From contig CM000151.3 of assembly GCA_000004695.1 (NCBI GenBank), positions 8,192,001 through 8,256,000 of the forward strand: a DNA stretch of 64,000 nucleotides. The letters are read 5' to 3'. Below are positions 27,196 through 29,803 of this stretch, piece by piece. This DNA comes from Dictyostelium discoideum (Eukaryota). The position numbers were made by a program, and so were the translations under genes. The notes under the pieces were generated by a model, which saw only the letters and a program-made list of their open reading frames with translations, was not told the origin of the DNA and ran no database searches. The first letter of the stretch is position 1, and each line of letters opens with the position of its first letter.

Positions 27196-27996
27196 ATGAG
27201 TGATAGAACAGAAATATTATTTTGGAAAGTTTTTAAAAATCAATTTTTATTCAAAGAGATATTTAATCAAATTCACAACAATGAATGGATTGAATATGAT
27301 GAACCAAATAAATATAATGTTAACAATAGATGTAAATTTGGAGACACTCACTCTTTACTAATAATGATAAAAAATGATCAACTCCCATTAATTAAAGATA
27401 AAATCAAACATGGTGATTATGTACATTTTAATTATGATTCAATAAGATTTCTTTTCTTAAAATTATCAACAACAGAACACCTACCACCATCAATAAAAAA
27501 TAATAATAAAAATAAATATAAAGATGAAGATTATTTAGAAATTATTGAATTATTTATGAAACATAGAAGAGGTGAATTTGAAATTAATGATTTAATACAT
27601 ATAGCAGCTTCTATAAATTCCCCAGTTATCATTAGATTATTAGTTAATGAACCATATTCAGTTATAATTTATCCACAAACATTTGAATTTGCAATTAGAT
27701 TTTCAAATTTAGAAACAATCAAAGAACTAATAAATTTAGAATCACTTAATTTTAAAAACTATGGTATTAAATTAATCAGTGAAGAATTTAAAAGAAAATC
27801 ATTATCATTAGCAGCACATAGAAAAACTCTTAAAACTACAATCACTGAATACATTTTTAATAATCCATCATTATATTCAATACCACCACCATTATCATTA
27901 ATAAATAATCAAAAACAACAAGATCAACAACAAACACAATCAAAAAATAAAAGATTAAAAATATCTGAAACTTTACATTCAAATTTAAATAATAAA

Positions 27997-28045
<49 letters not shown>

Positions 28046-28046
28046 G

Positions 28047-28124
<78 letters not shown>

Positions 28125-29803
28125 CGATGATGGTGATGGTGATGATGATAGTGATAATTATACTGATAGTGATAATTATAATGATAATGAAAATGGAAAT
28201 GATAATTATAAAGAAAAAATAAGAAATGGATATATTGAATCTCATGAATTTATAGAATTAAAATCAACCAATTTATTAAAATCATTTATGGAATTAGATA
28301 TAGTAGTTTTAAGTAAAACTAAAACATATTTTAATCAATTCCTTAAAATGTATCATCCATATGAAAGATTACAAGTTGGTATTAAAATGATTCTAAAGTT
28401 TGATAATACAATTCCAGAAAAAAAAAGAGAAGAAATTTTAGAAGAAATCAATAAAATTGATAGAAATAATGAAAGAGGTTTTAATAAATTAAAAGAATTG
28501 AGAAAATTAGTGGTAATTGAATTCCCAAGGCAAATAAACTTTTGTTACTATTATTGGAAAGCTTATGGCGAGAATATTAACAAACCTGGTGAAGTTCCTA
28601 AAAAATTAGGTTCTCCAGATAGTAATATGGAAACTTTCGAAAACCTTCTTTTAGAAAATGACTTACATGTCAATAATGAAACCAATACTCAAGAAGGTGA
28701 TGAAAATATAGAACAAGTAGAATTATTATCAAATAGTTTATATTCAGATAGTGAAGATGAAAATGAAGTTGAATTTGAAAGATATGTTGGACAACATGAT
28801 CCTTTTTTAGAAGAGTATTTTAATTACTCAAATAGATTAAGAAAAGAACCATTTTTTGATATATCCAATAGATATCCAGATTTACTCAATTCATATTTAA
28901 AAGCAATTAAAGAATGTAATATTGAAAAATTAGAAGATATTGATACAAATAATCCAATGTTTAAATTGGATGTTTCAAAATTTCATTGTTTTCAATTACC
29001 AAATGAAAAAGAAGATATATTGAAAATTTGGGAATACTTTAATAAACACTCATTTAAACAAATGATACCAATTGATATTCTTATTGAATTCCTTTCAAGT
29101 GTAACAAATATTATTCCACCTTTTGAATTGAAAATTTCAAATCTTAAAGAGCCATTATTTAAAAAACTTGGAACATTTCTATTATGGCAATTGTTTAAAA
29201 AGAATTATAATATATTTGAATTATTATTAAATAGTTTTGATGATTTTAATTTTATATTTCAACCACAAGAACTATCAGCTATGATAGATCAAGAGAAAGT
29301 TTTATTTGATGGTGATGGTGAATTATTCCAAATTGATAAAGAGTTTGGTTTTCAAATAATCAGGATAATTAAATTGGTAATGGACAAGTTTAAAAAACTC
29401 AGTAAAGATCAAATCAATATTAAAAATATGTCAACAACATATCGTCTCATTATAAATCATTTATATGATCAATTACTTAGAGTTAAAGGTTTAACAATCG
29501 ATCAATTAGAATATGTTAAATCAATTATTCCTGAAAAATTATTTTTTAATTATTTTAAAGCCTATCGTATCTTTTTCTATCTCAATATCAGATCTCCAAA
29601 ATTAACAAAATACATAACCAAAAGACCTGGAGTTGCAAATTTTATTGAAAATTCAGAAGTAGAGGATTACTATAATACTATTGGACCAACTACAAATCTA
29701 ATTACTGGTGATGAAATTATTGGTTTTGATTTAAGAAAATATTTAAATCTTGATTTATTCACATATGATTATATATTAGGTAGAGAATTAAATCAATATA
29801 ATT

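Follow-up and report, generated by a model that had tools for sequence, protein, structure and literature searches.

One low-complexity slot, different in every copy of a Dictyostelium discoideum tandem gene array, as a probable inherited coding microsatellite

Introduction

Simple repeats make up more than 10% of the Dictyostelium discoideum genome, and within its coding sequence AAT and CAA arrays of at least 20 units number in the thousands. What becomes of such a coding repeat when its host gene is copied into a tandem array? The question is raised by a window of 64,000 nucleotides on chromosome 2 of the AX4 lineage (GenBank assembly GCA_000004695.1, contig CM000151.3, positions 8,192,001 to 8,256,000), where about 15 paralogs lie head to tail, all on the + strand, each gene spanning 1,250-1,400 codons. 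An initial annotation of this window had proposed that one position in these genes, here called slot 1, carries Asn, Asn plus Asp, Asp/Glu, Gln, or nothing in different copies, and that it is a linker, tolerated and prone to slippage, in which point mutation and then repeat expansion cause the composition to drift. We compared slot 1 among the copies, in an independent assembly, and in relatives from divergent isolates, with the tract of copy 7 as the central example.

Coding triplet repeats of D. discoideum show a high degree of polymorphism, and their variability is no lower than that of non-coding repeats (Scala 2012, PMC3460934). Its amino acid homopolymers are often encoded by a single codon, consistent with recent expansion; they are enriched in weakly constrained, fast-evolving genes and are mostly without positional conservation relative to D. 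purpureum (Sucgang 2011, PMC3188802). In the standard model, point mutation creates neighboring identical codons, after which slippage follows (review, PMC9234386).

Results

Position and content of slot 1

The motifs PPPLS and (L/F)DIV, taken in a single reading frame, served as anchors for placing the copies in register. Twelve copies carry the slot 1 site in register, between NKRLK..SNL and EEIKYEYI.F, and the low-complexity tract found there ranges from 0 to about 96 codons, with a content that is different in every copy (Table 1). The anchors adjoining the slot have no indels, and the segment between them measures 7 to 119 residues. Mean pairwise identity is 86% over the 47-residue stretch upstream, which ends in the first residues of the anchor (IPPPLSL), and 78% over the 32 residues downstream.

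The contents that the initial annotation had given for copies 4, 6, 9, 12, 14, and 15, and the deletion in copy 11, agreed with Tandem Repeats Finder (TRF) output and codon listings; its interval for copy 7 (27995-28140) falls inside the tract, and its residue counts are close to ours. Copies 1, 3, 5, and 8 also carry the slot. The idea that all of the named copies share one slot held for the 12 aligned copies, in which the position is homologous, but not for copy 13, whose poly-Gln tract aligns with a second slot.

The copy 7 tract contains 37 Asp codons (36 GAT and 1 GAC) and 25 AAT codons, of which the leading Asn run accounts for 18, and its tail is made of decayed repeats. TRF described the copy 4 array as period 6 (12823-12965, 23.8 copies, 95% matches) and found a higher-order periodicity of 15-36 bp in the Asp/Glu tract of copy 12. 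In copy 11, INNQK joins straight to DDE-EGIKYEYIEF (INNQK-DDEEGIKYEYIEF), and the NKRLK motif is also lost. On composition alone, the 63-codon Asn run of copy 6 would fit the Q/N-rich prion-like type; the copy 7 tract, half Asp with a net charge of about -37, would not.

Just upstream of NKRLK lies a Q-rich stretch of 4-14 residues (e.g., QKQQDQQQTQ), CAA-based, at 27907-27945 and at the equivalent place in every copy. This is a genuine small Gln component of the slot 1 region, separate from the poly-Gln of copy 13.

Asn and Asp account for 9.9% and 6.3% of the background composition, and Asn/Asp runs as long as these tracts cannot arise by chance at such a composition. The TRF arrays of copies 7, 6, and 4 show the repetition far beyond compositional expectation that defines an in-frame coding microsatellite, and they lie within intact open reading frames (ORFs) of D. 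discoideum genes; the intact ORFs that run through slot 1 have 1,242-1,407 codons. All slot 1 repeat units are multiples of 3 bp, and every copy and every relative is in frame across the slot.

Table 1. Slot 1, its flanks, its host ORFs, and the other low-complexity slots of the family (window coordinates, or residue positions where marked aa)
Feature	Position	Strand	Content and remarks
Copy 7 ORF	27196..31353	+	Intact, 1385 codons; host gene of the finding; ORF list
Copy 7 upstream conserved anchor	27880..27987	+	IPPPLSLINNQKQQDQQQTQSKNKRLKISETLHSNL; short Q-rich stretch plus basic NKRLK motif; in register in 12 copies
Copy 7 slot 1 tract	27988-28209		74 codons: NN K N16 S D28 G D G DDD S D NY T D S D NY ND NE NG ND NY
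Copy 7 Asn run	27988..28044	+	AAT AAT AAA (AAT)16; TRF (AAT)19.3 at 27988-28045
Copy 7 Ser boundary codon and Asp run	28045..28131	+	AGT, then (GAT)25 GAC (GAT)2; TRF period 3, 34.3 copies, 28047-28149
Copy 7 degenerate D/G/S/N/Y tail	28132..28209	+	GDGDDDSDNYTDSDNYNDNENGNDNY; single-base derivatives of GAT/AAT; partly alignable to the ACTFIR relative
Copy 7 downstream conserved anchor	28210..28305	+	KEKIRNGYIESHEFIELKSTNLLKSFMELDIV; diverged form of EEIKYEYI.F..FIKLKSSNLLKSFMELDIV
Copy 1 slot 1 core	214..264	+	NNKKKKKNNYNDNDDDD
Copy 3 (DDB_G0277643) slot 1 core	7634..7669	+	KNNSNNNNNNDN
Copy 4 slot 1 core	12820..12963	+	(AAT)13, then period-6 AAT/GAT array with perfect (GATAAT)10
Copy 5 (frameshifted) slot 1 core	19286..19327	+	KNNDNDNDNENNNY
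Copy 6 slot 1 core	23448..23636	+	63 codons: 60 AAT, 2 AAC, 1 AGT; TRF, codon listing
Copy 8 (gene fragment) slot 1 core	32491..32547	+	(AAT)17 GAT AAT
Copy 9 (DDB_G0277585) slot 1 core	37407..37442	+	N8 D N D D
Copy 11 (DDB_G0277653) slot 1	43796..43804	+	Slot deleted, INNQKDDEEGIKYEYIEF
Copy 12 slot 1 core	48276..48563	+	96 codons: NNKNDNTTS, then GAT/GAA Asp/Glu tract
Copy 13 pseudogene segment	52497..52795	+	Slot-1-derived N/S/D/E tract fused to slot-2-derived acidic segment plus poly-Q
Copy 14 slot 1 core	56284..56331	+	NNNNDDNNNDNDNNDN; N/D mix
Copy 15 slot 1 core	60967..61032	+	SNNNSNNNNNNDDDNNDNNNDN; N/D mix
Copy 4 ORF	12055-16116	+	Intact
Copy 6 ORF	22671-26762	+	Intact
Copy 12 ORF	47430-51617	+	Intact
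Copy 14 ORF	55429-59616	+	Intact
Low-complexity slot	about 93 aa		Asn
Low-complexity slot (second acidic slot)	about 395-460 aa		Acidic/Asn; Q/E in ACTFIW
Low-complexity slot	about 802 aa		Ser or Gly-Ser in most copies; short, mostly Asn-rich in copies 11-14
Low-complexity slot	about 912 aa		Thr
Low-complexity slot	about 1133 aa		Asp/Glu

Codon purity was dropped as a test of slippage, and interruption codons were used instead. In the AX4 N/D tracts, 32 of the 35 interrupting codons are one substitution away from AAT or GAT, compared with 44.7% expected on the basis of background codons (binomial P = 8 × 10^-9). All eight Ser codons in the tracts are AGY, compared with 26% in the background, where TCA makes up 58% of Ser codons. 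The copy 7 relative from the isolate ACTFIR contains repeated AGT GAT GAT TAT units. These four-codon units, the 60-bp (GATAAT)10 of copy 4, and the 15-36-bp periods of copy 12 indicate that a mutated unit was amplified, not that independent substitutions accumulated. The growth of the copy 12 D/E tract by 15-36-bp units, with a 5' half conserved across lineages, is a caveat on the proposed mode of change. Collectively, the pure arrays, the interruption codons, and the length differences among relatives described below support the proposal of a slippage-prone linker altered by point mutation and then expansion. The accompanying claim that AAT, GAT, GAA, and CAA are single steps apart is correct for the chain AAT-GAT-GAA-CAA and fails for AAT versus CAA, which differ at two positions.

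Much of the NNK..N..S..D architecture is inherited and is not new in each copy. The common position of the tracts reflects their descent from a single ancestral repeat locus and not independent insertion at a hot spot.

Comparison with an independent assembly and with divergent isolates

The independent assembly GCA_054883475.1 is 99.6-99.8% identical to the window, the differences being mostly intergenic A/T homopolymers; the others are a small number of scattered single-base changes, including at least one in the copy 4 ORF (14682). The tracts of copies 1-9 are identical in this assembly, including the copy 6 tract ((AAT)63), as is the whole copy 7 protein; the tracts are therefore not assembly artifacts. 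The slot 1 core of copy 4 is identical in assembly L001. An apparent difference in the copy 6 tract between assemblies proved, by direct codon comparison, to be a MAFFT artifact.

The closest relatives in the isolates ACTFIR and ACTFIW were assigned by flank identity (91-94%, versus 85-89% for the next-best copy) and by tree. Repeat number differs between isolates, themselves divergent (synonymous divergence, dS, 0.07-0.11), inside the conserved flanks of copies 7, 6, and 1. Copy 7 reads AAT AAT AAA (AAT)16 AGT (GAT)25.., versus (AAT)25 (GAT)4 in its ACTFIR relative, that is, N18-S-D28 versus N25-D4; the relative's Asn run is without the AAA interruption, and the two share the unique flanks KISETL and KEKIRNGYIESHEF or its REKIRNGYIESHEF variant. 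The 63 codons of copy 6 (62 Asn) compare with 12 codons, N8 G N2 D (10 Asn), in its ACTFIW relative, and the NNKKKKKNNYNDNDDDD of copy 1 with NNKNNNNSDDDDDDDD in its ACTFIR relative. Between copy 12 and its ACTFIW relative, the tract is conserved in the 5' half and differs in the 3' half. The slot deletion of copy 11 is also present in its ACTFIW relative (L006:3665-3793).

We rejected treating ACTFIR and ACTFIW as ordinary conspecific strains. The family proteins of AX4 differ from theirs by 10-11%, and protein divergence is 7-8% even in DDB_G0274845. Both isolates are labeled D. discoideum and may represent a distinct lineage. The ACTFIR array also holds a DDE_1 (PF03184) transposase gene between two family copies (L003:12944-14338, - strand), a gene not seen at the matching position in the window.

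The poly-Gln tract of copy 13

Copy 13 (51854-54908) is missing its start, contains one frameshift, and is truncated at its 3' end. The initial annotation had listed about 45 Gln residues in this copy as one more state of slot 1. The run itself, at approximately 52668-52778, reads (CAA)29 AAA (CAA)3 AAA (CAA)2, or 34 CAA codons with two AAA interruptions. Comparing its DNA with copy 12 and with that copy's ACTFIW relative led us to reject it as a slot 1 allele: the EEIKYEYI flank is absent, and the run sits at the junction of a 233-codon deletion. The match to copy 12 ends at position 48434 of that copy, inside the slot 1 acidic tract, and resumes at 49136, so that approximately 700 bp (233 codons) are replaced by 131 bp bearing the CAA run.

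On the 3' side of the Q run, copy 13 reads CAA ATA CAA .. CAA GTA .. AAT GTT AAT AAA (QIQ..QV), and the second acidic slot of copies 11 and 12, aligned there, reads GAA ATT GAA .. GAA GTA AAC GTT AAT AAA (EIE..EV). A Q/E tract occupies the second slot of the copy 12 relative from ACTFIW (..NEDVDIQEQQQQQEQEQEGQQQQQEQ..), and the best alignment of the 5' edge and Q run of copy 13 (52624-52736) is to this tract, at 84% over 113 nt. Because alignments of low-complexity DNA are fragile, it is with moderate confidence that we interpret the Q run as a slot 2 tract moved beside slot 1 by a deletion between two acidic tracts. The two acidic tracts of one gene were probably the substrate for the 233-codon deletion, which suggests that low-complexity tracts within one gene can serve as deletion substrates.

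Constraint, predicted structure, and the other slots

Copy 11 and its ACTFIW relative, both without the slot, keep intact ORFs of approximately 1,220-1,240 codons; together with the range of slot lengths, this agrees with the description of slot 1 as a tolerated linker. Judged from ORF retention, slot 1 appears to be dispensable and length-tolerant. The same pair has a ratio of nonsynonymous to synonymous divergence (dN/dS) of 0.41, the lowest among the pairs tested. Across isolates, the closest relatives give values of 0.41-0.74, and paralogs give 0.68-0.99. These values point to a weakly constrained, fast-evolving family, which fits the published accumulation of repeats in weakly constrained genes (PMC3188802).

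When residues 1-700 were modeled using AlphaFold2, residues 247-348 formed coil with a predicted local distance difference test (pLDDT) score of 25-40, and helical blocks at about 50-150 and 560-640 scored 70-88. The coil is weak evidence for tolerance because the alignment had only eight sequences.

The family alignment contains five further length-variable low-complexity slots, making six in all, which behave alike (Table 1). The slot at residue ~800-900 is (AGT)n poly-Ser in copies 1-9 (e.g., 1843-1926, 14532-14637, 25205-25333, and 29804-29895) and uses AGT although TCA accounts for 58% of Ser codons in the background. In the ACTFIR relative of copy 7 (L003 gene 5372-9589), the same slot holds a (GGT AGT)15 Gly-Ser array.

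The gene family

The intact ORFs of copies 4, 6, 7, 12, and 14 have 1,350-1,395 codons each; copies 2, 5, 8, 10, and 13 are fragmentary or frameshifted. The GC content of the window is 18-25%. Three AX4 chromosome 2 proteins correspond exactly to window ORFs: copy 3 is identical to DDB_G0277643, copy 9 is identical to DDB_G0277585 when counted from the annotated internal start, and copy 11 differs from DDB_G0277653 solely by one annotated 45-nt intron. These are the only copies of the array with AX4 entries in a collection of 15 billion proteins, in which an exact look-up returned no AX4 entry for copies 4, 6, 7, 12, and 14. The long-tract copies seem to be unannotated or differently annotated in AX4. 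In GCA_054883475.1, the identical 1385-residue protein of copy 7 is called as a gene. The segment removed from copy 11 by its AX4 model (GT..AG, 43359-43403) comprises an Asn run and an NKYKD motif. Since NKYKD is invariant in 8 of 8 aligned paralogs and the ORF is continuous across this segment, the intron is probably an annotation error.

A Pfam scan of copies 7 and 11 gave no domain above threshold. Ankyrin membership was not indicated, as Ank_3 scored 14.1 and 13.2 bits against a cut-off of 22.3, and CDC45 matches on the acidic tract were spurious. Foldseek returned nothing from the PDB at E ≤ 0.001, the hits being generic helical-repeat folds at E > 2. Two word-indexed protein searches retrieved the same 10 family members, with no functional clue and without AX4 entries for copies 4, 6, 7, 12, and 14. 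A profile search of 1.84 billion representative proteins found 27 relatives; source names were looked up for ten of the clusters, all of which came from D. discoideum isolates, D. cf. discoideum, or D. dimigraforme, again with no functional clue. The family thus appears, from these searches, to be Dictyostelium-specific, uncharacterized, and without a Pfam domain. A published I-TASSER note of likeness between DDB_G0277585 and the InsP3 receptor (PMC8280847) obtained no support here.

Between the genes, a 44-bp near-perfect tandem duplication (ATTTTCCTTAGCAAGTATCGAACTTAGAGACCAATGTGTTACAA, two copies, 97%) lies just upstream of the copy 8 fragment (32064-32152), and GTT/GAT/GCT-rich tandem arrays of 9-12-bp units lie between copies 8 and 9 (35800-36120) and between copies 9 and 10 (41429-41522). 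One of these arrays produces a spurious 100-codon ORF (35834-36136). An ARAGORN scan of the window detected no tRNA.

Discussion

The slot 1 tract is very likely an in-frame coding microsatellite, inherited with its gene and modified thereafter in each paralog on its own. In this reading, a single ancestral N/D-rich low-complexity locus, placed in a loop that separates the N-terminal helical region from the remainder of a ~1,300-residue protein, would have been duplicated with the gene as the tandem array expanded and then changed independently in each copy. Length would change through replication slippage or unequal exchange between repeat units, and composition through point mutations (AAT to GAT, GAT to GAA) that were themselves amplified. 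The product would be a disordered spacer, highly polar or acidic, on which selection would do little more than maintain the frame and exclude hydrophobic residues.

An alternative is that an acidic or Asn-rich tract beside the basic NKRLK motif is selected as a functional spacer, or "tuning knob," in functionally specialized paralogs, acting for example on localization, charge-dependent interactions, or condensate behavior. The distant family members P0015 (NDENDNDDDDNDDDNDD) and P0016 (NDEDEDDEDEDEDD) have an acidic or N/D tract at the same place, acidic residues end every slot before IKYEYI, the copy 12 acidic tract is conserved across lineages in its 5' half, and long ORFs are kept in a genome of 22% GC. 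However, copy 11 and its relative, without the slot and without NKRLK, are the most constrained pair, and the distant members P0017, P0024, and P0026 have no slot. The lengths of 0 to 96 codons follow no pattern, and pseudogene copies 5 and 8 bear the same kind of tract. A polar-only composition is expected anyway from AAT, GAT, and GAA repeats, and published coding repeats are as variable as non-coding ones. We consider selection of this kind unlikely. It is a distinctly speculative idea, and in our judgment an improbable one, that the slots are evolvability modules, with tracts serving as recombination substrates that generate domain-deleted variants (copy 13) and with charge and length tuning paralog-specific function; if true, that function might concern self-recognition or social conflict, for example.

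Gene conversion or unequal crossing-over between paralogs could have mainly shuffled pre-existing tracts. The setting is favorable, a tandem array of paralogs 85-92% identical in DNA, and the NNK-N(n)-S-D(n) arrangement with the LKSTNLL flank occurs both in AX4 copy 7 and in the lineage of copy 1, and the tree does not place these two as sisters. Such shuffling would homogenize the tracts, yet no tract is common to any two AX4 copies. Flanks unique to copy 7 and its ACTFIR relative enclose runs of different length, so the change happened in place, and perfect period-3 and period-6 arrays are the signature of slippage at the level of the unit. We find it very improbable that exchange was the main process. 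It is harder still to credit an artifact, either mis-assembled triplet repeats or a tract that lies outside the protein in an intron or pseudogene. Repeats are indeed hard to assemble, the protein collection covers only three of the AX4 copies, and one AX4 gene model splices out a different Asn run; but the second assembly reproduces the copy 7 protein and every tract of copies 1-9, the tracts are all read in frame within a continuous ORF, and the copy 7 tract has no GT..AG intron structure.

Several points weigh against an inherited microsatellite that changes by slippage and point mutation under little selection. For Asn, Asp, Glu, and Gln, codon purity carries no information, since a single codon already makes up 92-96% of background usage in the family genes (AAT 93%, GAT 94%, GAA 92%, and CAA 96%). 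No tract length differs between the two near-identical AX4-lineage assemblies, which leaves instability on a short time scale unsupported. The isolates are so divergent, with another gene, DDB_G0274845, at 92-93% protein identity, that the comparisons measure divergence between lineages and not population polymorphism. The AlphaFold2 model is poor (mean pLDDT 48.8), and its low confidence reaches the conserved flanks. Finally, the presence of an acidic tract at the place of slot 1 in P0015 and P0016 is compatible with a degree of selection in favor of an acidic spacer.

The phenomenon is well documented for D. discoideum; the slot 1 locus and its gene family are newly described. The tracts resemble the published coding microsatellites of this organism in their dominant AAT motif, preserved frame, frequent use of a single codon, variation among isolates, weakly constrained host genes, and agreement with the model of point mutation plus slippage. 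What differs here is that one ancestral locus can be followed through approximately 12 paralogs and several lineages as N, N/D, D/E, or loss, and that poly-Asp is prominent, whereas the papers stress the commoner N and Q tracts.

Comparable regions are described in other systems. Asn-rich regions of Plasmodium falciparum, as described in PMC3749963 and PMC3140889, likewise occur in an AT-rich genome as AAT-based runs in loops between conserved blocks; for these and for slot 1, slippage or unequal exchange is thought to operate, and function is debated or absent. Plasmodium belongs to a different phylum, and its antigenic or heat-shock biology is not suggested for slot 1. The N-terminal regions of vertebrate CPEB1-4 also combine conserved domains with an equivalent low-complexity region that varies in composition and length; in the account given in PMC11965684 they are argued to be functional through phase separation and regulation, whereas nothing comparable is indicated for slot 1. 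Bacterial contingency loci, too, have slippage-prone repeats inside coding sequence, but their units are not multiples of three and a change in length toggles the frame. Because slot 1 units all have lengths divisible by three and never disturb the frame, slot 1 is not a phase-variable contingency locus.

The slot 1 locus leaves the known principles of D. discoideum amino acid repeats unchanged. It flags an uncharacterized, species-restricted, weakly constrained family with some annotation gaps, and it shows two acidic tracts in one gene that bracket a large internal deletion. The tandem array makes one ancestral coding microsatellite traceable through about 12 paralogs and several lineages, so that a single site displays expansion, contraction, a codon switch from AAT through GAT to GAA, decay, and loss.

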